Shown here piece after piece: positions 1 through 32,038 of a stretch of DNA of 32,038 nt. The position numbers and the translations under genes are program-made. The notes beneath the pieces are model-generated. The model worked only from the letters and a program-made list of their open reading frames with translations. It was not told the DNA's origin and made no database searches. The DNA is from a virus: IMG/VR virus record IMGVR_UViG_3300029241_000080; one strand, given 5' to 3'. Every line of letters starts with the position of its first letter. Position 1 is the stretch's first letter.

Positions 1-99
1 CTCCGGCGGCCTTACTTTGCCCAATTATTTATTATCCGTCAGCTGCTTCACGCTCTGATTCAGCCCCGTCGCCGCCCATCCGGACACGATGCCGACGGC
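1..99. repeat. Terminal direct repeat, left copy (circular-closure overlap)
   Basis: Bases 1-99 are letter-for-letter identical to 31940-32038. The repeat contains the 3' end of the holin gene and one arm of a terminator hairpin, so it is an overlap of a circular or concatemeric sequence rather than an independent element. Confidence 0.95.
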
Positions 100-3207: not shown

Positions 3208-5151
3208 TTACTTGTATCTGCCTACGACGTAGTAGCTGATGCGTGGAGTTAGTATCGTCGCCGTGGTAGGCCGTGCGAGTGCATACGCCGGCGCGCGGGT
3301 AAGCAGATCGTCGCTTGCGCCAAAAGTGGATATCAGCCAAGCGTCCTTATCCCCGCCGCTATAAGACGCCGATACCAACGGCGTGGCGATAAAAGCAAAA
3401 GGATACTGCCGTGCTGTGACGTTGCTCGGCAAGTCCATCCACGTGCCATAGTACATGCTGCCCCACGCGGACGTGATCGCAATCTGATCGACGCCGGATA
3501 CCGCCCACAGCTCCGCAATGCCGCTGCTCCACTTGCGCCACGTCCAAAAGTCATTCGCCCCCTGCTCGGTGACATAGTCCGAGCCGGTGACGACGCTATC
3601 CGCATATGCTTTTGCCGCGTCCAGCGCCGTTTTTACCGCGTATGGCGTGGCTGCAAGCACCTTGCTGATGGAATCGATTCTGGTCGACAGCATGGTTGTG
3701 CCGTAGTGCGACAGGCTCGCACGCACGGCGATGGCAGCATCCGTCTCCGCCTTGGTGTAGTAATCTCTGCCAGACATGGCGCCGATGTCGGCCAGCAGCT
3801 CGGCCGGTGTGCGATAGTACACCCAGCCAGACTCATCCAGTACGGCGATCTTGCCGGGTACGCGGCCGAGGTCGGTTGCCTCTGTTGTCTGCAGCCATGT
3901 ACCGGTAAAGTACTTGCCGGCGACATTGCCCGTAAAAGTCCCGCCGGACTTGTCCATCTTATCGCCCAGGGCAGTCTTGTCGGCCTTGGTGTCCAGCGCG
4001 GCCTTGATCGCCCGGTTTTGCACCGGATTTGTGGATGTGTCAGATAGCGCGCTGTCCACGTCGATCCCTCCGCCAGACGCAGCCACAGACCCGCCCGCTG
4101 ACCCGCCGCCGGAGGCGACGGCGCCGGTCAGCGTCTTACTGCCCCAGCCAAGCGTCAGGCTGTCTTTGTCGCCGACGAGACTTGTGTCCACTTTGGACAC
4201 CGTCATCACGGCGTCGATGCCGTGCGGCGGCGACACCACGCGCACGCTGTCGCCGACATCAAAAGGCTCCAGCTCCGTGTCTGCACCGGACAGGTCCGCC
4301 GCGCTGACCTCGATTCCACGCGACAGGCCGCAGTTTTTGGCAAGATAAGACGCCGCCGTCGACTTAAGCACGGCAGGATCATCCGTGTCTACCTGCACCG
4401 TACCGTCGATGCGGCCATACAGCGCCTCGGCGTCTGCGTTGATCAGATACGGGACCCCGCCGTTTACGCTGTCGATCGTCAGCCCGTCCTTGCCGACTGG
4501 GTAGACGCGCGTCAGCAAGTTCGCGCCGTCGATTTTGTCGGTAAGATTTAGTAAATTTTTGCGGATGTCCACCTGCTGTGTGCACATATGGCGATAGCTT
4601 TTGTGCACATCCAGGTATACGTTGCCTCCGGAGTATCGCAGGCGCATCGTCCCGCCAACGGCCGTCATGGCCTCCTGCAGCAGCGACAGCGTAGATACAT
4701 ACTCTGTATGCTGCACGGACAGCGTCGGCAGCGCGGAGTCCACCGTACCAAGCAAGATCTTACGCGCAGGTGCGCACGCAGCGTTATACTGCGTCAGCAG
4801 CGCGGTGACGTAGTACTCCACGGTGCTTGGTGACAGCGTAAAAGGTGCTTTGCATATATCGTCCAGCCACAGCATCGCACCGTCCACGCTATAGGTGCGG
4901 CTGCCGCGCAGATCCGTGGACGTGTCAGTCAAGCTGCCGCGAAAGATCTCCGTCCCGTCTTTTTGGATCGAGATCACGGATGCGCGCTTGATCGGCACGT
5001 CGCGCATGGCGTTGGACGGCGGCAGCACAAAATCCGCCGAGTCGATCTCGCCGACTGCGCGGTGCAGCGTGCCGGCAGAGATCTCGCGCCCGGCCATGCC
5101 GACCGCAAAAAGCAGCGTACCGTCTGTATAGCCAGCGTACATCAGATCCAC
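3208..5151 (-). CDS. Tail-associated lysin-like (Tal) / tail fibre, receptor-binding protein
   Basis: About 645 aa, positioned directly after Dit. It has a siphovirus Tal-like N-terminal part, Gly/Ser linkers (GGGSAGGSVAASGGG) and a fibre motif (SDTSTNPVQNRAIKAALDTKADK). The start is either GTG 5151 or ATG 5142; the latter forms an ATGA overlap with the Dit stop. Confidence 0.8.
   Translation of the reverse strand: MDLMYAGYTDGTLLFAVGMAGREISAGTLHRAVGEIDSADFVLPPSNAMRDVPIKRASVISIQKDGTEIFRGSLTDTSTDLRGSRTYSVDGAMLWLDDICKAPFTLSPSTVEYYVTALLTQYNAACAPARKILLGTVDSALPTLSVQHTEYVSTLSLLQEAMTAVGGTMRLRYSGGNVYLDVHKSYRHMCTQQVDIRKNLLNLTDKIDGANLLTRVYPVGKDGLTIDSVNGGVPYLINADAEALYGRIDGTVQVDTDDPAVLKSTAASYLAKNCGLSRGIEVSAADLSGADTELEPFDVGDSVRVVSPPHGIDAVMTVSKVDTSLVGDKDSLTLGWGSKTLTGAVASGGGSAGGSVAASGGGIDVDSALSDTSTNPVQNRAIKAALDTKADKTALGDKMDKSGGTFTGNVAGKYFTGTWLQTTEATDLGRVPGKIAVLDESGWVYYRTPAELLADIGAMSGRDYYTKAETDAAIAVRASLSHYGTTMLSTRIDSISKVLAATPYAVKTALDAAKAYADSVVTGSDYVTEQGANDFWTWRKWSSGIAELWAVSGVDQIAITSAWGSMYYGTWMDLPSNVTARQYPFAFIATPLVSASYSGGDKDAWLISTFGASDDLLTRAPAYALARPTTATILTPRISYYVVGRYK
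4184..4200. repeat. 17-bp palindrome GTGTCCA-CTT-TGGACAC, copy a (inside the Tal gene)
   Basis: Exact match, read directly. It encodes V-S-K-V-D-T in the Tal frame, just before the Gly-rich linker. Confidence 0.95.
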
Positions 5152-10511: not shown

Positions 10512-10528
10512 GTGTCCAAAATGGACAC
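10512..10528. repeat. 17-bp palindrome GTGTCCA-AAA-TGGACAC, copy b (intergenic)
   Basis: Exact match. The arms extend to 13 bp (10506-10534). It lies 7 nt upstream of the SD of the head-closure gene. Confidence 0.95.
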
Positions 10529-16214: not shown

Positions 16215-16432
16215 GTCTCACGCTCCTTTTGTGTCCACTTTGGACACGCTCCCGGCCGCTGTTTGGCCGGGAAAGTTTCGCTTTTTCGCGCAAAATCTGC
16301 GCGTCCCGAAAAATTCGCCTCCAAGGTTTCCGTGCGCGCGCCCGATTGCTTTGTTCCCGCGCGATCCCCCCGCGCCGAAAACTCGGCGCGGTTGGAGAGA
16401 GTTCCCGGTGCCGGTCTTTGGAGACCGGCCAA
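16215..16432. other. Non-coding packaging region, candidate cos site
   Basis: 218-bp ORF-free gap between the HNH and terS genes. It is rich in short hairpins (CCGGCC-N7-GGCCGG, CGCGCCGA-N4-TCGGCGCG, CCGGTCT-N4-AGACCGG), contains repeated TTTT-CGCGC-type motifs, and ends in a G8 run. Confidence 0.5.
16231..16247. repeat. 17-bp palindrome GTGTCCA-CTT-TGGACAC, copy c (abutting the terS SD)
   Basis: Exact match. In minus sense it reads GTGTCCAAAGTGGACAC-AAAAGGAG-8 nt-ATG(terS). Confidence 0.95.
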
Positions 16433-20488: not shown

Positions 20489-21023
20489 GGCCGGCCTCCT
20501 GCTCGTCGATTAAAAATTGATGATGTTGCAGAAGCTCAAAGGCAGCCTGCAGCAGTATATCATCACAACAGTCGATGTCGCGCAGCGGACACTTGTCACA
20601 GTTTTCCTTGCTGGCGCCGATGCAAAGCCGTAACGTATCCATGACCTCGTCGCGTGTCATGCCGTTAAAATCCCAGCGCCCGCCGACGACGCCGCGGATT
20701 TTGCCCTCGCGTGTCGTCGCAAGCGTCCACCTGTAATAGCGCGCAGACTTGATGTCATACGTCGGCTTGCCGGTGTACTCCACCAAAAGGTGCTCAATCC
20801 GTGCACCTTTGGAGTCCTCCCAGCCCGGCAAAAACGCGACTGCATCCGCGCTGTCCAGCTGCGCAAAGCTGATGCGCATATAGTCGGCGTTGCTCATGCC
20901 CTCCGGCTGCATGGCCGGGTTGATGGGCGTGTGGCCGGCATCGGCGATGTCCGCCGCGGCGCGGGCAAACTTGGCCTTATAGTACGGGTCTCCGGTGATC
21001 TTACCTGCTATGTAGATTTTCAT
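20478..21023 (-). CDS. DUF4406-like (nucleoside 2-deoxyribosyltransferase-like fold) protein with Cys-rich C-terminal domain
   Basis: 181 aa from ATG 21023, with GGAGGA upstream and an ATGA overlap onto the ParB-like stop. MKIYIAGKITGDP...FLPGWEDSKGARIEH matches the DUF4406 pattern. Confidence 0.7.
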   Translation of the reverse strand: MKIYIAGKITGDPYYKAKFARAAADIADAGHTPINPAMQPEGMSNADYMRISFAQLDSADAVAFLPGWEDSKGARIEHLLVEYTGKPTYDIKSARYYRWTLATTREGKIRGVVGGRWDFNGMTRDEVMDTLRLCIGASKENCDKCPLRDIDCCDDILLQAAFELLQHHQFLIDEQEAGHGK

Positions 21024-22279
21024 GCGTCGTCCTCCTTTTTGTACTCGCGCTGCGGCAGCGCCGTAAAGTGCGGGTTGTCCGTCCGGCAGAGCAGATAGTC
21101 CGTGGTCACGCCGAGGATGTCGGCGGCCGCGACCAGCGCGTCGAGCGACTCGACAGCCACACTCCTGTAAGGCGCCCAATACGTGCCGCCACTCGCAAGC
21201 CCAGCCACAGTGGTGTGCAGCGCCTCGGCGACCGCCTCCTGCTCTCCGTATGCGGCGAGCGCGTGCGTCAGTCTGCCCCAGTAGATGCGGCACTTGCTCT
21301 CGCGCTCCCCGCGGCGCTTGGCAGCCTCGTCGTTCGCGCGCTGCTCGGCCTCGGCCTTATCCTCGCGGAGCTGCAGGTGCCTGTCCTTGGCGACCTTGCA
21401 GTACTTGTCGCACGTAGCGATGTCGTAGCACTCCATGCAGCAGGTGTGCTCGCAGCTGCGCATGTAGTTGCCGGTCGTCTTTTGCAGCGATTTGACCATG
21501 TTGCCGCACGGGACGCCGCATGCATACTTGCACTTGCGGGCGGCGAGACTGTCGCGGTCGCTCAGGATGCGCTCGGCCTCGCCGCAGCGCATGGCGACCA
21601 GACCGTCCTGGCCGTTGCCCTTGACCTTGGCGATCAGTTGCTGGTCGTCCGCGGAGCACTTGGCGATCTCGTAGGCCACGCTCTCGGGCATGCGGCCGTC
21701 GTCATAGTACTGCTTAATCTGCGGGATCAGCTTGGTCTTGATCGTGTCCAGCCGTGCGATCTTGGACGCCGAAATATTGCACGCGCTGGCGACGTAGTCG
21801 CGCATCCGGCCCGGGAACTCGTAGCCATGGGACTTGAGGCCGTACAGCAAATCGCGCACACGGTCGACCTGCTTGGAGGTCTCCGCCGAGGTCAGCACGC
21901 GCGTCGCGCTGTTGGCCTGGATCAGCATCAGCTCCTCCATCAGGTCGTCGCCCGGGTCGCGCACAAAGCACGGCGTCGTCTCAAACGGCTTGGTGTCCTC
22001 GGCGAGATGGTCGTCCAGGATCGTCATCAGCGCGCGGTGGCGCCGGTGGCCGGAGATGATGATGTAGCCCTCGCCGTCGCCGGACGGCCGGACGGTTAGC
22101 GGGTCGAGCAGCCCCTGCATCAGGATGCTGTCGATCAGGTCATCGACCTTGGAGGTGTCGTAAAAATTTTTGTCGTTTGCGAAAATCTTGCGCGTAGGGA
22201 TCATCTGCAGCCTGCGCTCGGCCGGCTTGGCAGCGCCCTCTGGCGGCTTGATGTAGTCCGCGAGGTTAAAATTACTCAT
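21020..22279 (-). CDS. parB: ParB N-terminal domain protein (partition/nuclease-like) with Cys cluster and C-terminal XRE-type helix
   Basis: 419 aa from ATG 22279. It has a ParB-box region (LIDSILMQGLLDPLTVRP...YIIISGHRRHRAL) and nine Cys between aa 250 and 294. The C-terminus LGVTTDYLLCRTDNP is typical of HTH_3 ends. It lies directly downstream of parA. Confidence 0.75.
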   Translation of the reverse strand: MSNFNLADYIKPPEGAAKPAERRLQMIPTRKIFANDKNFYDTSKVDDLIDSILMQGLLDPLTVRPSGDGEGYIIISGHRRHRALMTILDDHLAEDTKPFETTPCFVRDPGDDLMEELMLIQANSATRVLTSAETSKQVDRVRDLLYGLKSHGYEFPGRMRDYVASACNISASKIARLDTIKTKLIPQIKQYYDDGRMPESVAYEIAKCSADDQQLIAKVKGNGQDGLVAMRCGEAERILSDRDSLAARKCKYACGVPCGNMVKSLQKTTGNYMRSCEHTCCMECYDIATCDKYCKVAKDRHLQLREDKAEAEQRANDEAAKRRGERESKCRIYWGRLTHALAAYGEQEAVAEALHTTVAGLASGGTYWAPYRSVAVESLDALVAAADILGVTTDYLLCRTDNPHFTALPQREYKKEDDA

Positions 22280-23042
22280 CGTCTGCCGCCTCCTTGCCCA
22301 GGTACTCGTCCACAAAATCGCGGTAGTCGCGGGCGGCCGCGCACCAGCGGCTGTATGTGCTGATCGGCTGGCGCGCGAAGGTCGCCTCGTCCATCTTGTC
22401 CGTGCGGCGGATCGTGGTCTCAAACACCGGCACATCCATGGCGCGCAGGTACTGCTCGCCCTGCGTCACGACCGGCGCGTTGTGCCACATCGTCACCAAC
22501 ACACCGGCGATCCGGATGCCGCTGCGCACCGTCTGCACGGCGCGGATCTGCGCCGTCAGCTCGTCGATGCCGGAGATGGCAAAGGCGTCGACCTTGGCCG
22601 GGATGATGATGTCGTCGCTGACGGAGATGCCCGCGATCGACACCGCCGTAAAGCCCGGCGGGCAGTCGATGATGACATAGTCATAGTCCGACTCGTCGCG
22701 CATATCGCCGACAAAGTCCGCAAAATTTTGGATCAGCTTGGCGTCCGCGGTCGCCGCCGCGACGTCGAGCTGCAGCAGGTCCATGCTGGCGGGGATGATG
22801 TCCACGCCGTCGACCTGCGTCATCCAGCAGTAGCTGTCCCACGCATCCGGATGCGTAAACACGTCGCAAAGCTTCACCGGCGCATTTTCGCCGCCATAAA
22901 AGCGGGTCGCGTTGGCCTGCGGGTCTGCGTCGATCAGCAGCACGCTCTTGCCGTGCTCCGTCGCCAGGATGCTGGCCATGTTGATGGCGGTAGCGGTCTT
23001 GCCGACACCGCCCTTGAGATTTACAATGCTGATAACTTTCAT
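22272..23042 (-). CDS. parA: ParA-family partition ATPase
   Basis: Deviant Walker A (NLKGGVGKTATAINMA), LLIDADPQANAT and IIDCPPG motifs. 256 aa. Confidence 0.92.
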   Translation of the reverse strand: MKVISIVNLKGGVGKTATAINMASILATEHGKSVLLIDADPQANATRFYGGENAPVKLCDVFTHPDAWDSYCWMTQVDGVDIIPASMDLLQLDVAAATADAKLIQNFADFVGDMRDESDYDYVIIDCPPGFTAVSIAGISVSDDIIIPAKVDAFAISGIDELTAQIRAVQTVRSGIRIAGVLVTMWHNAPVVTQGEQYLRAMDVPVFETTIRRTDKMDEATFARQPISTYSRWCAAARDYRDFVDEYLGKEAADDE

Positions 23043-23323
23043 TTTTTTGCACCTTTCTTCCTGCGCTTTGTCTCGCCCGCCATCCGCGCCTCACGCGGTC
23101 GCCGCGGCGTGATGTTGGCATCCGGATCACCGGCGCGATCCGGGAAGTAGTAGCTCTCGCGGCACTTGCGTCCGCGGGGCATTTCAAACTCGACGGTATA
23201 AAACCGCCGCTGCGGATGGATGTACACCACTGTGCCGGTAAAGGCTTGCCCATCCGACACAAAGCCCGTGCAGCTGACGCCGTAGGACGGCACCATGCCG
23301 GGCAGCTTGTCGCCGATCTTTAT
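23039..23323 (-). CDS. Hypothetical basic-tailed protein upstream of parA
   Basis: The sequence (I/M)KIGDKLPG...GTVVYIHPQRRFYTVEF... ends in a Lys/Arg-rich tail. The first in-frame ATG is at 23296, but a strong SD (GGAGGGAGGAGG) sits 8 nt upstream of ATA 23323, which overlaps the dnaB stop as ATAA. Confidence 0.45.
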   Translation of the reverse strand: MKIGDKLPGMVPSYGVSCTGFVSDGQAFTGTVVYIHPQRRFYTVEFEMPRGRKCRESYYFPDRAGDPDANITPRRPREARMAGETKRRKKGAKK

Positions 23324-24627
23324 GGCAGTTCGCCTCCTCCCTCCGCGGTGCGCGGCCATGCCTGCATCCGCGGCCAGTCGTCCTCGTCGTCGTGGTCGGC
23401 ACGTGTGTCCATTTTGGACACCGCCGGCAGCATACGCAGATGCGCCGCGTCAAAGACCAGCTCGATCGCGCCGCGCTCTCCCTCTTTGTTTTTGACGATC
23501 GACAGCACCCGGTCGCCGCCGGGCTGCGCCGCGAGGATCATGATAGCGTCTGCGTCCTGCTCCAGCTGGCCGGACTCGCGCAGGTCCGACATCGACGGTG
23601 TGCGGCTGCGTGCCGTGCCTTTTTCGGGGCGCGACAGCTGCGACAGCGCGATCACGGCGATGCCGGTCCGCTGCGCCATCGTGTGCAGCGCGAGCGAGAT
23701 GTTGGTCACCTGCTCGACGCGGGTGTTGCCCTTGGCCTGCAGCAGCTGTACGTAGTCGATGACGATCACGTCGTACCGCCGCGCCATGGCGACCGCCTGC
23801 ACATCGGCGACGCCGAAACCGCCAGCGCGGATGACATCAAGGTTGATGTGCTCCGCCGTCCGGATCGCGGTCGTCGCGGAGGCATAGTCCTCGGCGATCA
23901 TCTGATTGCGCTTGATGCGCCCGAAGTTGATGCCCTGCACCTGTGCCACCATGCGGTCGTACAGCTTGGCGTCCGATGTCTCAAGGCTAAAAATCCCGAC
24001 GCGCAGACCGCTGCGCGCCATGTGCATCGCAAACTGCGTCGCCAGCAGCGTCTTGCCGCTGCTCGGCAGGCCGCCGAGGATGATCAGGTCGCCGCGCTCG
24101 GCGTAGAGCCTCTCGTCCAGCTGCCGGATGCCCCAGCGGAGATAGTCCGGCTGATGCCCATCGGCGTGGCGCTGGTAAAACTCGCACAGTCCCTGATGCC
24201 AGCTGACGACGCGCAGCGTCTTGCTGTCGCACAGGCACTCGCTCGCCGTCTCGACGGCCGCGCGCGCCTCGTCCAGCGTCACCGCGTCGAGCATCTTGGA
24301 CGCCGCATCCTTGATGCGCGCAAGCCTTGCCTGATCGCGCATCACGTCGGCATATGCCTCCCAGTGCGCCGCCGTCGGTGTGTCGTCCATGATCTGCACC
24401 AGCATCTGCCGATATGCATCGCCCAGGCGGTGCAGCACCGTGACCACGTCGACCGTCTGACACGCGGACCACTGTGCGCGGATGGCATCGTACACGTGCC
24501 GGTACTCCGGCGTCAAAAAGTCCTCCGCTGAGACGCGCAGCATCACGTCGCCGACGATCTCCGGCGAGATCAGCACGCTGCCGATCACGGCCGCCTGCGC
24601 ATCGATCAGTGTCTGCTTTACGTCCAT
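23320..24627 (-). CDS. dnaB: Replicative DNA helicase DnaB
   Basis: 435 aa from ATG 24627. It has a DnaB N-terminal domain, Walker A (GGLPSSGKTLLATQFA), Walker B (VIVIDYVQLL), SQLSRPEK and the RESGQLEQDAD motif. Confidence 0.93.
   Translation of the reverse strand: MDVKQTLIDAQAAVIGSVLISPEIVGDVMLRVSAEDFLTPEYRHVYDAIRAQWSACQTVDVVTVLHRLGDAYRQMLVQIMDDTPTAAHWEAYADVMRDQARLARIKDAASKMLDAVTLDEARAAVETASECLCDSKTLRVVSWHQGLCEFYQRHADGHQPDYLRWGIRQLDERLYAERGDLIILGGLPSSGKTLLATQFAMHMARSGLRVGIFSLETSDAKLYDRMVAQVQGINFGRIKRNQMIAEDYASATTAIRTAEHINLDVIRAGGFGVADVQAVAMARRYDVIVIDYVQLLQAKGNTRVEQVTNISLALHTMAQRTGIAVIALSQLSRPEKGTARSRTPSMSDLRESGQLEQDADAIMILAAQPGGDRVLSIVKNKEGERGAIELVFDAAHLRMLPAVSKMDTRADHDDEDDWPRMQAWPRTAEGGGELP
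23405..23421. repeat. 17-bp palindrome GTGTCCA-TTT-TGGACAC, copy d (3' end of dnaB, upstream of the par operon)
   Basis: Exact match. It encodes V-S-K-M-D-T in the DnaB C-terminal tail. Confidence 0.95.
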
Positions 24628-26687: not shown

Positions 26688-26708
26688 AAAAACACCTCCT
26701 GCTGGGCG

Positions 26709-26800
26709 AATGTCATAGTTTGCGACCTTGCAAACAGCAATGTCACCGTTTATGACATCATTTTACCCCCAAAAAACGCAAATGTCAATATCTTTGTCAT
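26709..26800. promoter_or_regulatory. Operator-like repeats of the genetic switch
   Basis: The palindrome ATGTCA-N7-TGACAT (26740-26758) overlaps the predicted early transcription start. There are further (A)ATGTCA copies at 26709, 26781 and 26794. The palindrome GTTTGC-N6-GCAAAC lies at 26718-26735, and TTGCAAAC recurs at 26819. Confidence 0.5.
26760..26788 (-). promoter_or_regulatory. Early (cro-side) sigma-70-type promoter TTGACA-17-TAAAAT
   Basis: Read on the minus strand, the -35 element TTGACA is at 26788..26783 and the -10 element TAAAAT at 26765..26760, with an exact 17-nt spacer. It lies about 70 nt upstream of the cro-like ATG. Confidence 0.7.
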
Positions 26801-26818
26801 TATTTTTTTGTCCGGATA

Positions 26819-26847
26819 TTGCAAACGTCAAAAATTGTGACTATTAT
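26819..26847 (+). promoter_or_regulatory. Repressor-side sigma-70-type promoter TTGCAA-17-TATTAT
   Basis: The -35 element is at 26819-26824 and the -10 element at 26842-26847, with a 17-nt spacer. The first start codons (GTG 26856, ATG 26859, ATG 26865) lie only about 9-18 nt after the -10, so the mRNA has a very short leader or none. Confidence 0.65.
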
Positions 26848-26855
26848 TTGATCGG

Positions 26856-27812: not shown

Positions 27813-27814
27813 TT

Positions 27815-27831
27815 GTGTCCAAAGTGGACAC
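27815..27831. repeat. 17-bp palindrome GTGTCCA-AAG-TGGACAC, copy e (between the repressor stop and the HIRAN SD)
   Basis: Exact match. It starts 3 nt after the repressor TGA and abuts GGGAGGAG. Together with copy f it forms a 21-bp perfect inverted repeat (27814-27834). Confidence 0.95.
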
Positions 27832-27848
27832 GGGAGGAGAGTCAAAAA

Positions 27849-28625
27849 ATGAAAAAGTGGTATCAGTACTGGACAGTCTGGGTGGCGATTGCACTGCTTG
27901 CTGGGTCTTGGGTGCCCGTATGGATCTTTGGCAATCAGGCGAGCGACGTTGTGCTCGGCGCTATCGTCTACGCGCTGGCGTTGGTTTCCATTGTGTTTTT
28001 TGTCGTGTTTGCTGTGCAGTATAATCGCGCAAAAAAGGCGGCGCGCGAAGCTGCCGACGCAGCGCACGCTGCCGAGCTGCGCGAGCAGTGGGCGCAAAAG
28101 CAGGCGGACGCAGCCGCATCCAAGGCAGCAGCCGAAAAAACGCCCGCAAAGCCCCGCGCAAAGTTTGAGCGCCACAAGGTCGCCGGCACGTCCTACCATC
28201 TGGATGCGATCATGGAGCTGGCCGAGGATAACCCAGACTACGACATGACACAGCGTGAGATTATCGACGACGGCCTGACCGACGAGCGCATCTATCAGTA
28301 TACTTTTACCGACGGGCCGGTCGAGCTGGTCGATGACCCGGGCAACGAGTACGACCCCAACGCCATCAAGGTGCTGGTCGCCGGGCAGCACATCGGCTAC
28401 ATCAAGCGCGGCAGCACCGGCCGCGTCCATAACCTGCAGCGCACCGGGCGCGTGCTCGGCGTCACGGCAGAGATCTACGGCGGCAAGTACAAGGTGGTGA
28501 TCTGTGACGACGACGATGACGGCGCAGAGCACTACGATCTGATCAGAGACGAGACGGGATACGGCGCAGCCATCGAGATCCTCGTCCGCCCGGAGCAGGA
28601 GCCCGTGTCCACTTTGGACACATAA
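27849..28625 (+). CDS. Membrane-anchored HIRAN-domain protein (lysogeny-module accessory gene)
   Basis: 258 aa from ATG 27849, with GGGAGGAG upstream. It has two N-terminal TM helices (WTVWVAIALLAGSWVPVWIF, VVLGAIVYALALVSIVFFVVFAV) and an Ala/Lys/Glu-rich linker. The C-terminal HIRAN-like motifs are KVAGTSYH ... LVDDPGNEYDPNAIKVLVAGQHIGYIKR. Confidence 0.75.
   Translation: MKKWYQYWTVWVAIALLAGSWVPVWIFGNQASDVVLGAIVYALALVSIVFFVVFAVQYNRAKKAAREAADAAHAAELREQWAQKQADAAASKAAAEKTPAKPRAKFERHKVAGTSYHLDAIMELAEDNPDYDMTQREIIDDGLTDERIYQYTFTDGPVELVDDPGNEYDPNAIKVLVAGQHIGYIKRGSTGRVHNLQRTGRVLGVTAEIYGGKYKVVICDDDDDGAEHYDLIRDETGYGAAIEILVRPEQEPVSTLDT
28605..28621. repeat. 17-bp palindrome GTGTCCA-CTT-TGGACAC, copy f (last codons of the HIRAN gene)
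   Basis: Exact match. It encodes V-S-T-L-D-T followed by the stop. The 21-bp sequence at 28602-28622 is the exact reverse complement of 27814-27834. Confidence 0.95.
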
Positions 28626-28631
28626 CAGTAA

Positions 28632-28667
28632 GCGCCCGGTGCAGTCACACCGGGCGCGAACTTTTAC
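28632..28667 (+). terminator. Intrinsic terminator after the HIRAN gene
   Basis: A 10-bp GC-rich stem GCGCCCGGTG/CACCGGGCGC (28632-28641/28648-28657) is followed by GAACTTTTAC, a weak U tract. Confidence 0.5.
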
Positions 28668-29924: not shown

Positions 29925-29964
29925 CAAAAAACCCGGCAATCTCAATGGATTGCCGGGTTTTTTG
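29925..29964. terminator. Bidirectional intrinsic terminator
   Basis: An 11-bp stem ACCCGGCAATC/GATTGCCGGGT (29931-29941/29948-29958) is flanked by an A6 run on one side and a T-rich run on the other. Confidence 0.75.
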
Positions 29965-29965
29965 C

Positions 29966-30012
29966 TGGTGGACGATACAGGACTCGAACCTGTGACCCTC
30001 CGCACGTCAAGC
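29966..30012 (-). other. attP core candidate: 3' portion of a tRNA gene (anticodon loop to CCA)
   Basis: The minus strand reads GC-TTGACGT-GCGGA-GGGTC-ACAGG-TTCGAGT-CCTGT-ATCGTCC-A-CCA. This gives the anticodon-stem 3' half, variable loop, T arm, acceptor 3' half and CCA. No matching 5' acceptor or D arm is present upstream, so it is a fragment. The loop TTGACGT would imply a GAC (Val) anticodon, with low confidence. Confidence 0.65.
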
Positions 30013-30071
30013 ATGGTGTGCATTGCCACTATGCATTGGTATTACTGCATTGCGAGATATGGCGCAAATAT

Positions 30072-30107: not shown

Positions 30108-30923
30108 TCATTTGATTTGCTGATACAGTATCCTGACTCGCTTCCCTCGCTGCTGTAGTATCCGTTGCACACGATTGTAATCTTTGACAGATATGATGGG
30201 CGCGTGACATCCCTTGTACAACTGGCCCTTATAGCTGTTGTAGCCAGCATATACCGGACAGATAAGTATCCGCCGGATTGATTCGGCAGTCTGTACTCTA
30301 CCGCGTTTCCCGGTGTAGCCGCGCAATCTGCACAGCTCGGCAACGGCCGACAGATTGCGATATTCCAAGTAACGATCAAAAATATACCGCACGCGCTCCG
30401 CTTCCGCCGGGTTGATCTTCAGGCTGTCCTTGCCATCGAGGTCATAGCCAAGGACTTCATTGCACGTCCGCTTTCCCTGCGCTGCCCGTTCGGCAATCGC
30501 CGCGCTGACACGTTCTGCCGTAAATTCTCGTTCCATCTGAGCAAAAATCCCGAGCATGCCCATCATTGCGCGCCCGGTCGGCGTGGTCGTGTCAAAAGCC
30601 TCTGTGTAGCTAATTAACCCGCAGTTGTGCGTCGCAAACAGATCCCACACGCTGTATAGGTCAGCAACGCTGCGCGTCAATCGGCTGAGCGCCCAGACGC
30701 ACACAACGTCGATTTCTCCGGCCTGCACATCGGATAGCAGCTGCAGCATTGCCGGTCGATGCTTGATGTCCTTCGCGCTGATCCCTTCGTCCGCATACAC
30801 GCCGGTTACATCATAGGCGCGGCCATTGCACCACTGCATCAAGCTCTTGCGCTGGGCGGCGAGGGAATATCCCTCTGCCGCCTGCTCGCTCGTTGATACA
30901 CGGATATAGATTGCCGCACGCAT
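30108..30923 (-). CDS. Serine recombinase, short form (resolvase catalytic domain plus recombinase domain, no zinc-ribbon/coiled-coil)
   Basis: 271 aa. The catalytic region is AAIYIRVSTSEQ...YADEGISAK...VWALSRLTRS, and a recombinase-domain-like part follows (...RRILICPVYAGYNSYKG...HAPIIS...). The ORF stops immediately after this, about 95 bp from the tRNA fragment. Confidence 0.85.
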   Translation of the reverse strand: MRAAIYIRVSTSEQAAEGYSLAAQRKSLMQWCNGRAYDVTGVYADEGISAKDIKHRPAMLQLLSDVQAGEIDVVCVWALSRLTRSVADLYSVWDLFATHNCGLISYTEAFDTTTPTGRAMMGMLGIFAQMEREFTAERVSAAIAERAAQGKRTCNEVLGYDLDGKDSLKINPAEAERVRYIFDRYLEYRNLSAVAELCRLRGYTGKRGRVQTAESIRRILICPVYAGYNSYKGQLYKGCHAPIISVKDYNRVQRILQQRGKRVRILYQQIK

Positions 30924-31921: not shown

Positions 31922-31949
31922 GCCGCCGGAGCACTTACGCTCCGGCGGC
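31922..31949. terminator. Terminator shared by the lysis operon (minus) and the HTH gene (plus)
   Basis: An 11-bp stem GCCGCCGGAGC/GCTCCGGCGGC has a 6-nt loop. In minus sense it is followed by TTTGTGATTTTAAATTT. It lies downstream of the holin stop across the circular junction. Confidence 0.75.
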
Positions 31950-32038
31950 CTTACTTTGCCCAATTATTTATTATCCGTCAGCTGCTTCACGCTCTGATTC
32001 AGCCCCGTCGCCGCCCATCCGGACACGATGCCGACGGC
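31940..32038. repeat. Terminal direct repeat, right copy (duplicate of 1-99)
   Basis: Identical to bases 1-99. Implies a unit genome of 31,939 bp. Confidence 0.95.

Follow-up and report, generated by a model that had tools for sequence, protein, structure and literature searches.

We analyzed a gene at positions 27849–28625 of the virus record IMGVR_UViG_3300029241_000080 (IMG/VR; 32,038 nucleotides, hereafter the window), in which a predicted membrane anchor and linker precede a domain with the HIRAN fold. The data are best explained by an accessory ("moron") gene of the thaL type in a temperate phage whose likely host belongs to the gut Oscillospiraceae. The gene lies between the repressor and integrase genes, a position that recurs in distant lineages of a large family, and comparison with sibling phages indicates that this slot is a swappable cassette whose exact boundaries are two 17-bp palindromes that track ParAB genes, which is a new finding here. 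The gene is a newly found member of a kind that has already been named and whose function is uncharacterized in the family. This analysis adds the family's size and phage-specificity, the presence of anchors at either end of the protein, a quantified synteny with integrase genes, an exonuclease as the alternative occupant of the slot, and the link between the palindrome and ParAB.

A Membrane-Tethered HIRAN Protein

The open reading frame extends on the + strand from an ATG at 27849 to a stop codon at 28623–28625 and encodes 258 amino acids (aa), with a GGAGG motif 11 nt upstream. Kyte–Doolittle hydropathy in 19-residue windows peaks at 1.88 (aa ~8–28) and 2.91 (aa ~34–56), consistent with two transmembrane (TM) helices. 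The segment that follows is basic, with 13 Lys/Arg and 7 Asp/Glu residues over aa 58–110 and an isoelectric point (pI) of 10.1, and the first AlphaFold model predicted it to be helical. Hydropathy, composition, and modeling therefore agree with a first-pass annotation of the window, made from the nucleotide letters alone, that had described two N-terminal TM helices and a basic helical Ala/Lys/Glu linker. The charge pattern (an MKK N-terminus, a GNQASD loop, and RAKKAAR after the second helix) predicts an N-in/C-in topology under the positive-inside rule, so that the C-terminal domain would face the cytoplasm, the orientation that the same annotation had suggested.

The C-terminal domain is predicted to have a HIRAN fold. 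An AlphaFold model built from a diverse alignment gave a predicted local distance difference test score (pLDDT) of 92.1 over aa 106–258; it supersedes a model from the close family alone (46 sequences, 58–100% identity), in which the pLDDT of this domain was below 50. The top 16 Foldseek matches in the PDB are all HIRAN structures (HLTF entries 4S0N, 4XZF, 4XZG, 6KCS, and 5BNH and L. plantarum lp_0118, 3K2Y), with a probability of 1.0, E-values of 1e-3 to 6e-3, and template-modeling scores (TM-scores) of 0.39–0.53. No other fold had a probability above 0.3, another HLTF entry aside. The Pfam profile PF08797 matches at 29.8 bits against a curated cut-off of 24.7 (E 5.5e-7), covering aa 157–198 only (profile positions 25–67 of 96), and this match is precomputed for nearly all homologues. 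It is the only Pfam or NCBIfam match of the gene product above a curated cut-off, the NCBIfam scan giving nothing relevant, and the PHROG matches are families without known function that align over the C-terminal domain. Among nucleic-acid-binding folds, HLTF HIRAN chains alone were found when the family profile was compared with PDB sequences, a match at E 0.14 that aligns NEYDPNAIKV with NPYDKNAIKV. The HIRAN assignment of the first-pass annotation has thus passed both profile and structure searches. The domain also contains a helical insert past the first strand and a long β-hairpin (aa ~202–246) with a variable acidic tip, CDDDDDGAEH.

Residues of the putative end-binding pocket are strongly conserved. 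We assigned their equivalents from the profile alignment and from the roles that we take HLTF N91, D94, Y72, H110, K113, and F142 to have on the basis of the HLTF structure papers. Across 146 family domains, N166 and D169 are each present in 146/146, K186 in 144/146, Y184 in 140/146, and Y214 in 129/146; position 116 is Tyr, Phe, or His in 140/146, and position 187, the K113 equivalent, is Lys or Arg in only 90/146. Among near-identical phages, the mean identity is 45–46% in the TM region, 55% in the hairpin tip, and 90% in the HIRAN core. Because the anchors are interchangeable and the pocket is invariant, it can be argued that the anchor serves for localization and the HIRAN pocket for the activity itself.

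Two unrelated alleles of the TM region (aa 12–56, window 27882–28016) occur among otherwise nearly identical phages. The hairpin tip (aa 217–237, 28497–28559) likewise has two alleles, CDDDDDGAEHYDLIRDETG and RCVEEYQ-MQHYEMDRDES. These alleles are combined mosaically, and Q/T-rich linker insertions have been gained.

The Gene Family and Its Place in Lysogeny Modules

The 317 close relatives, 58–100% identical, match the protein in length and architecture. In all seven places looked up, the gene lies between repressor and integrase genes on its contig; some contigs encode a repressor with a different N-terminal part in the same gene order. A search of 1.84 billion cluster representatives (50% identity clusters) returned 1,112 clusters with E ≤ 1e-3, 757 of them with E ≤ 1e-10. 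Across this family, identity in the C-terminal domain is ~35–50%, and the linker differs in length, with Q/T-rich insertions. A TM or other hydrophobic anchor is present in ~81% of the best 149 representatives. The anchor types include one or two N-terminal helices, C-terminal helices, TM2 domains, DUF4236-TM and zinc-ribbon-TM modules, and an amphipathic MGLFDFFKK-type N-terminus alone.

With home-made iterative hidden Markov models, we surveyed 79 viral-contig loci, which group into 35 lineages (70% identity clusters). The anchor is N-terminal in 29 loci and C-terminal in 29, with none detected in 18. A recombinase gene lies within 2.5 kb in 67/79 loci and downstream on the same strand in 60/79, and 53/79 also have a helix–turn–helix (HTH)-like open reading frame within 1.5 kb upstream on the same strand. 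Counted by lineage, 25/35 have a downstream same-strand integrase gene of tyrosine or serine type. The first-pass annotation had placed the gene in a lysogeny slot and proposed a survey for enrichment in such modules; the result goes beyond its claim, as distant lineages whose integrases are of unrelated types share the order repressor, TM-HIRAN gene, integrase. The association with lysogeny modules is real, and it arose or persisted with unrelated integrases.

Homologues with 38–49% identity over the domain illustrate the range of arrangements. These run from an HTH repressor through the gene to a serine integrase and host genes, from an S24 repressor through the gene to HicAB, from an HTH gene through the gene to a second HTH gene and a tyrosine integrase, and from the gene through an ion-channel gene to a tyrosine integrase. 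There are two exceptions: in one, the gene is on the lytic strand, flanked by early genes and HNH/terminase genes, and in the other it adjoins lysis genes. In the prophages IPP29 (HIRAN-linker-TM) and Javan349 (TM-coiled coil-HIRAN) of Streptococcus, the homologue lies between a regulator and an integrase. Homologues in pneumococcal prophages IPP12–30 occupy the same slot with 30.9–33.6% identity (E 5e-7 to 8e-5), pneumococcal and S. oralis prophage homologues share 31–34% identity over the domain (E 5e-7 to 1e-8), and the family is also found in Bacillus SPbeta. Partners observed in the lysogeny modules are Abi_alpha, a HicA/HicB pair, and an ion-channel (Ion_trans) gene (loci L014 2286–3077; L023 5893–6520; L027 5746–6468).

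Evidence for a Swappable Cassette

The sibling phages (loci L032–L036) encode an integrase with 87% identity and the same C-terminal part of the repressor; they lack the thaL-like gene and keep both palindromes. Their alternative cargo (L032 2330–3864, also in L033–L036; equivalent to 27815–28621) encodes a 319-aa RNase_T/DEDDh 3′–5′ exonuclease–BRCT protein together with a 176-aa open reading frame, for which no family match was found. The exonuclease–BRCT protein matches the PADLOC candidate PDC-S48 (E 6.5e-29), placing a defense candidate in the same slot. Homology between the two phage types ends at 27836, at the left palindrome, and restarts at 28605, at the right palindrome. Because siblings with the same integrase and repressor carry an unrelated cassette, the thaL-like gene is dispensable cargo. 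The exonuclease alternative suggests a shared 3′-end theme for the slot.

The cassette boundaries coincide with the two arms of a perfect 21-nt inverted repeat (27814–27834/28602–28622), which the first-pass annotation had missed, as it had the hairpin at 28632–28657. The left arm lies between the repressor stop codon and the thaL ribosome-binding site (RBS), and as RNA it is predicted to form a 7-bp hairpin (−13 kcal/mol, z −3.1). In both cassette types, the paired palindrome copies are exact reverse complements, with centers AAG/CTT here and ATT/AAT in the siblings. The C-terminal residues VSTLDT are 95% conserved, a consequence of the overlap of the right palindrome DNA with these codons.

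The 17-bp Palindrome and ParAB

The palindrome, GTGTCCA-N3-TGGACAC, has six exact copies in the genome, compared with an expectation of ~1 even at up to 3 mismatches. Some copies are intergenic and lie just 5′ of an RBS, and others fall in coding sequence read as V-S-x-L/M/V-D-T; the copy at 23405–23421 is upstream of an orf106-parA-parB operon. Counting multi-copy and ParAB-linked matches only, we found that the palindrome recurs in several copies in phages without DNA similarity to the present one. Homologues of ParA and ParB_N are encoded in 19/120 palindrome-bearing viral loci (27–45% identity, one close relative aside), and 13 of these 19 have a palindrome copy no more than 125 bp from the parA-parB junction (parA 3′ end/parB start).

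Our best reading of these patterns is that the palindrome probably serves a phage ParABS family as a parS-like site. The dispersed centromere sites of N15 and chromosomal parS are similar in being short, scattered palindromes, partly in coding sequence, that accompany a ParA/ParB pair. The present palindrome differs from canonical parS in its unrelated sequence, and the phage that carries it also integrates. To our knowledge, a cassette-boundary role is not a known property of parS. Bounding of the cassette by two such sites could reflect recombination at a conserved sequence or ParB-mediated control of the cassette.

Other interpretations of the palindrome were rejected. Single matches in IMG/VR are no sign of a wide distribution, as 14 specified bases are expected by chance at that collection size. 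A CI operator was rejected by inspection, since 26690–26850 holds different repeats and no palindrome half-site. Nor is the palindrome a general feature of thaL genes, being absent around the thaL homologues of other lineages. As a separate observation, orf106-parA-parB (21020–23359, − strand) adjoins genes for DnaB and an HTH_36 replication protein in an integrating phage. The operon suggests that the phage can also be maintained or segregated as an episome.

Genome and Transcriptional Setting

An exact 99-bp terminal direct repeat (window 1–99 and 31940–32038) indicates a circular, closed phage genome of 31,939 bp; lysis and tail genes run on across the window ends. Identical and near-identical contigs come from human-gut metagenomes. 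Among species-representative genomes, only two metagenome-assembled genomes match, labeled Subdoligranulum and Collinsella, and the Collinsella genome is probably mis-binned. A DNA search of GenBank phages matched the attP/tRNA fragment alone, and this stretch is the sole part common to other GenBank gut-phage contigs, in short matches. The features discussed here are listed in Table 1.

The repressor stop codon and the thaL-like ATG are separated by 36 nt, and a terminator scan of 27813–27848 found no terminator-like site between the two genes. Coordinates and scan thus bear out the first-pass annotation, which had set the gene between repressor and integrase with no terminator after the repressor gene. 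Given this layout and the shared strand, it is reasonable to expect that the repressor and thaL-like genes are co-transcribed in lysogens. The promoter at 26819–26847 is a candidate maintenance promoter for the repressor–thaL transcript, and a divergent promoter on the − strand (26788–26760) has 11/12 consensus matches. The distance from the end of the −10 element of the + strand promoter to the repressor start codon is 9–12 nt, so the repressor gene may have an mRNA with little or no leader. The region 26690–26855, which holds the divergent promoters of a cro-like gene and the repressor, contains ATGTCA-N7-TGACAT-type inverted repeats that are likely operators.

The hairpin at 28632–28657, between the thaL-like gene and int, resembles a terminator whose U tract is weak; relatives keep its stem and differ in its loop. 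Past int, the hairpin at 29930–29966 is of the bidirectional terminator type. The neighboring tRNA fragment covers model positions 10–63 at 18.7 bits, below threshold, and ARAGORN found no complete tRNA in the window; this stretch is the probable attP core. Just past attP lies a gene for a small serine recombinase (30108–30923, − strand; 271 aa) with Resolvase and Recombinase domains and no zinc ribbon, so that serine recombinase and tyrosine integrase coexist in one phage.

Table 1. Features of the thaL-like locus and related sites, in window coordinates
Feature	Position	Strand	Evidence or remarks
thaL-like gene, TM1-TM2-linker-HIRAN	27849..28625	+	Open reading frame, Pfam, hydropathy, AlphaFold, Foldseek
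Two predicted TM helices, aa ~8–28 and ~34–56, membrane anchor	27870..28016	+	Hydropathy
Basic Ala/Lys/Glu-rich linker, predicted helix, aa 57–105	28017..28163	+	Composition, AlphaFold
Predicted HIRAN-fold domain, aa 106–250	28164..28598	+	AlphaFold pLDDT 92.1; Foldseek PDB and BFVD matches; N166/D169 invariant
Left arm of 21-nt perfect inverted repeat; core 27815–27831, 17-bp palindrome GTGTCCAAAGTGGACAC	27814..27834	.	Left cassette boundary
Right arm of inverted repeat; core 28605–28621, GTGTCCACTTTGGACAC	28602..28622	.	Overlaps last codons PVSTLDT; right cassette boundary
Palindrome copies	4184–4200, 10512–10528, 16231–16247, 23405–23421, 27815–27831, 28605–28621	.	Exact match
CI-type repressor, HTH_3 and Peptidase_S24, 317 aa	26859..27812 (ATG 26859)	+	Pfam E 2.9e-28, 1.7e-12; PHROG 4 transcriptional repressor; same call on public contigs
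Sigma-70-like promoter TTGCAA-17-TATTAT	26819..26847	+	9/12 consensus matches only; just 5′ of repressor start
G+C-rich hairpin GCGCCCGGTG-loop-CACCGGGCGC, 10–11 bp stem	28632..28657	.	Terminator scan; −35.6 kcal/mol together with palindrome, z −4.9
Tyrosine integrase, 389 aa	28674..29843	+	Pfam Phage_integrase E 9.4e-19; PHROG 1 integrase
Strong terminator hairpin 29930–29966 and tRNA 3′-part fragment 29977–30034 (− strand)	29930..30034	.	
parA 22272–23042; ParB_N gene 21020–22279 (419 aa)	21020..23042	−	Pfam on identical public contigs; co-occurrence; candidate partners of the palindrome

Relation to Known Systems

The first-pass annotation had not recognized the combination of membrane anchor and HIRAN domain as a described system. 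In this it was mistaken: thaL has already been named in a preprint on the conflict between prophages and transformation, where it belongs to prophage phiRMV8 with a C1-type (S24) regulator, and the sensing of invading phage DNA ends by HIRAN was proposed earlier for HipL/HipN (PMC8262856; a further source on the HIRAN of HipN/HipL is PMC11706625). No functional study of a membrane-tethered HIRAN protein was found in the literature searched. The present gene resembles thaL in encoding one or more TM segments with a HIRAN domain in a lysogeny module, beside regulator and integrase genes and with a C1/S24-type repressor. It differs in its distant host (60% G+C gut Clostridia), and many streptococcal versions have the reversed order HIRAN-linker-TM, as in IPP29. 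From architecture and position, we assumed that the pneumococcal IPP genes are the same as the named thaL.

HipA with HIRAN is listed by PADLOC as the candidate PDC-M03, and PDC-M03B matches the gene product weakly (E 5.7e-4, aa 157–190 only). The likeness to HipN/HipL lies in a bacterial HIRAN domain proposed to recognize invading phage DNA ends. In contrast to HipN/HipL, no HipA kinase or HipS-like domain is encoded nearby, the neighbors being the repressor and integrase genes, and the logic would be that of a tether rather than a kinase toxin. The HIRAN domains of HLTF and lp_0118 are the only convincing structural matches and share the NxYDxNAIKV...GH/YxKK motif, and the equivalents of HLTF N91, D94, H110, and K112 are invariant or nearly so. 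The domain is nevertheless only 18% identical to these, has a helical insert and a β-hairpin of ~45 residues, and is acidic rather than basic; unlike HLTF, the present protein is membrane-tethered and has no helicase or ubiquitin-ligase partner.

A further comparison is with superinfection-exclusion (Sie) proteins. Sie2009, Ltp of TP-J34, and Sfi21 orf203 are membrane exclusion proteins encoded between int and the repressor gene in Firmicute phages, and HK97 gp15 and P22 SieA also belong to this class. The thaL-like gene is similar in its genomic slot, membrane location, single-gene organization, and presumed lysogenic expression. The Sie proteins, however, lack a DNA-binding domain and target the injection machinery, which they reach from the outer or membrane side, whereas the domain examined here is predicted to be cytoplasmic.

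Proposed Function

The best-supported model, plausible though short of probable, is that the protein is a tethered end-trap with a role in defense or exclusion. The thaL-like gene would be transcribed with the repressor gene in lysogens, and the anchor, with its two helices and ~50-residue linker, would only localize the protein at the cytoplasmic face of the membrane. There, the HIRAN pocket would bind the free 3′-OH end of DNA that arrives at the membrane from outside, for example the genome of a superinfecting phage, and DNA held in this way would be unable to circularize or replicate. The integrated prophage, lacking ends, would be spared. A stoichiometric binder would suffice, as an incoming genome has only two 3′ ends. 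Support for a tethered end-trap comes from the lysogeny position, the interchangeable anchors and variable tethers, and the invariant pocket. The fast-evolving anchor and hairpin tip, the defense-type neighbors, and the alternative cargo also point in this direction.

Several observations weigh against a tethered end-trap. Expression with the repressor is read from gene layout, and it may not always be lysogenic, as in 9/35 lineages the gene has a different location, such as the lytic strand with early genes on one side and terminase on the other. TM-scores to solved HIRAN structures are only 0.4–0.53, owing to the helical insert and the long extra β-hairpin. The HIRAN-fold domain is strongly acidic (pI 4.2; family median 4.95, with 92% below 6), which argues against extensive contact with the DNA backbone, and HLTF HIRAN is basic. 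The equivalent of HLTF Y93 (position 168) varies across the 146 domains. Pfam, NCBIfam, and PHROG scans gave no sequence or profile similarity to the known Sie families (Sie2009, Ltp, SieA, gp15), and the PADLOC scan of the gene product returned weak HIRAN-motif matches only, the best at 5.7e-4. In the thaL preprint, the name appears once; the gene was annotated only and, unlike szaL and spaL, not disrupted.

A more far-reaching version of the end-trap strikes us as doubtful taken as a whole. It would make the family a new class of prophage immunity, a non-enzymatic membrane trap for 3′ ends with a topological distinction between self and non-self, in which ends near the membrane are foreign. 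The cassette would be 3′-end-directed, and palindromes bound by ParB would promote its exchange and allow ParB to shut it off during lytic replication.

The protein could instead be an abortive-infection sensor-effector, in which HIRAN senses free ends or replication intermediates and clustering of the TM helices depolarizes or permeabilizes the membrane, killing the lysogen. A sensor domain joined to a two-TM module in one gene is a common layout of defense effectors, and the neighboring Abi_alpha, HicAB, and ion-channel genes would fit such a function, as would the idea of a HIRAN phage-end sensor published for HipL/HipN (PMC8262856). The anchor, however, varies in sequence, number, position, and type, is absent in ~19–24% of members, and is swapped between unrelated alleles even in near-identical phages. 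This pattern fits a localization tag better than a pore-forming effector, and we regard abortive infection as unlikely.

A role in the phage's own life cycle seems to us no more likely than abortive infection. The protein would tether or protect the phage's own genome ends, or modulate excision, induction, or replication at the membrane. Such a role would be in line with the lineages in which the gene is on the lytic strand by HNH/terminase genes or by lysis genes, and with the flanking sites linked to phage ParAB. In a transposon-directed insertion-site sequencing (TraDIS) screen, moreover, a Salmonella Typhi prophage had a HIRAN cargo gene that scored as required, alongside the repressors (PMC3632133). 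Siblings with the same repressor, integrase, and replication genes nevertheless do without the gene, so that it is dispensable for the life cycle, and both its neighbors and the alternative cargo are of defense type.

Somewhat less likely still is an anti-transformation or "anti-curing" function, in which HIRAN would capture the leading 3′ end of single-stranded DNA brought in by the competence machinery, preventing deletion of the prophage through homologous recombination or damping RecA-dependent induction of the S24-type repressor. Transforming DNA enters Gram-positive bacteria with its 3′ end leading, and the family occurs in the naturally competent genera Streptococcus and Bacillus (SPbeta). 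The paper in which thaL was named concerns the conflict between prophages and transformation, and the C1-type (S24) regulator of the prophage described there has a counterpart here. The same preprint, however, chose the thaL-carrying RMV8 lysogen for being transformable and likens the competence-triggered lysis of another prophage to that of phiRMV8. Family members also accompany short HTH-only and ImmR/ImmA-type regulators, and the likely Oscillospiraceae host has no documented competence.

A phase-variable cassette inverted at the 21-nt repeats by an adjacent recombinase, as an on/off switch, is largely refuted and very improbable: the perfect inverted repeats around the gene, the central triplets that co-vary left and right as reverse complements in both cassette types, and the tyrosine and small serine recombinases encoded nearby would suit it, but public contigs gave the inverted junction 0 times and the native one 1 + 14 times (assemblies may miss a rare inversion), the palindrome also stands at four other genome sites and in unrelated phages, where it tracks parA-parB, and we know of no recombinase core site with 7-bp arms and a 3-bp center.

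Implications

The family occupies the classical exclusion slot and may rank among the commoner accessory genes of temperate Firmicute phages, with members in gut Clostridia, streptococci including S. pneumoniae, and Bacillus SPbeta. If the tethered end-trap is correct and 3′ ends are held at the membrane, this would represent a new and very simple principle of immunity, with bearing on phage therapy, on competition among gut prophages, and on the conflict between pneumococcal prophages and transformation. The palindrome-bounded cassette and its exonuclease alternative provide a natural isogenic phage pair and point to a route by which phages exchange cargo.

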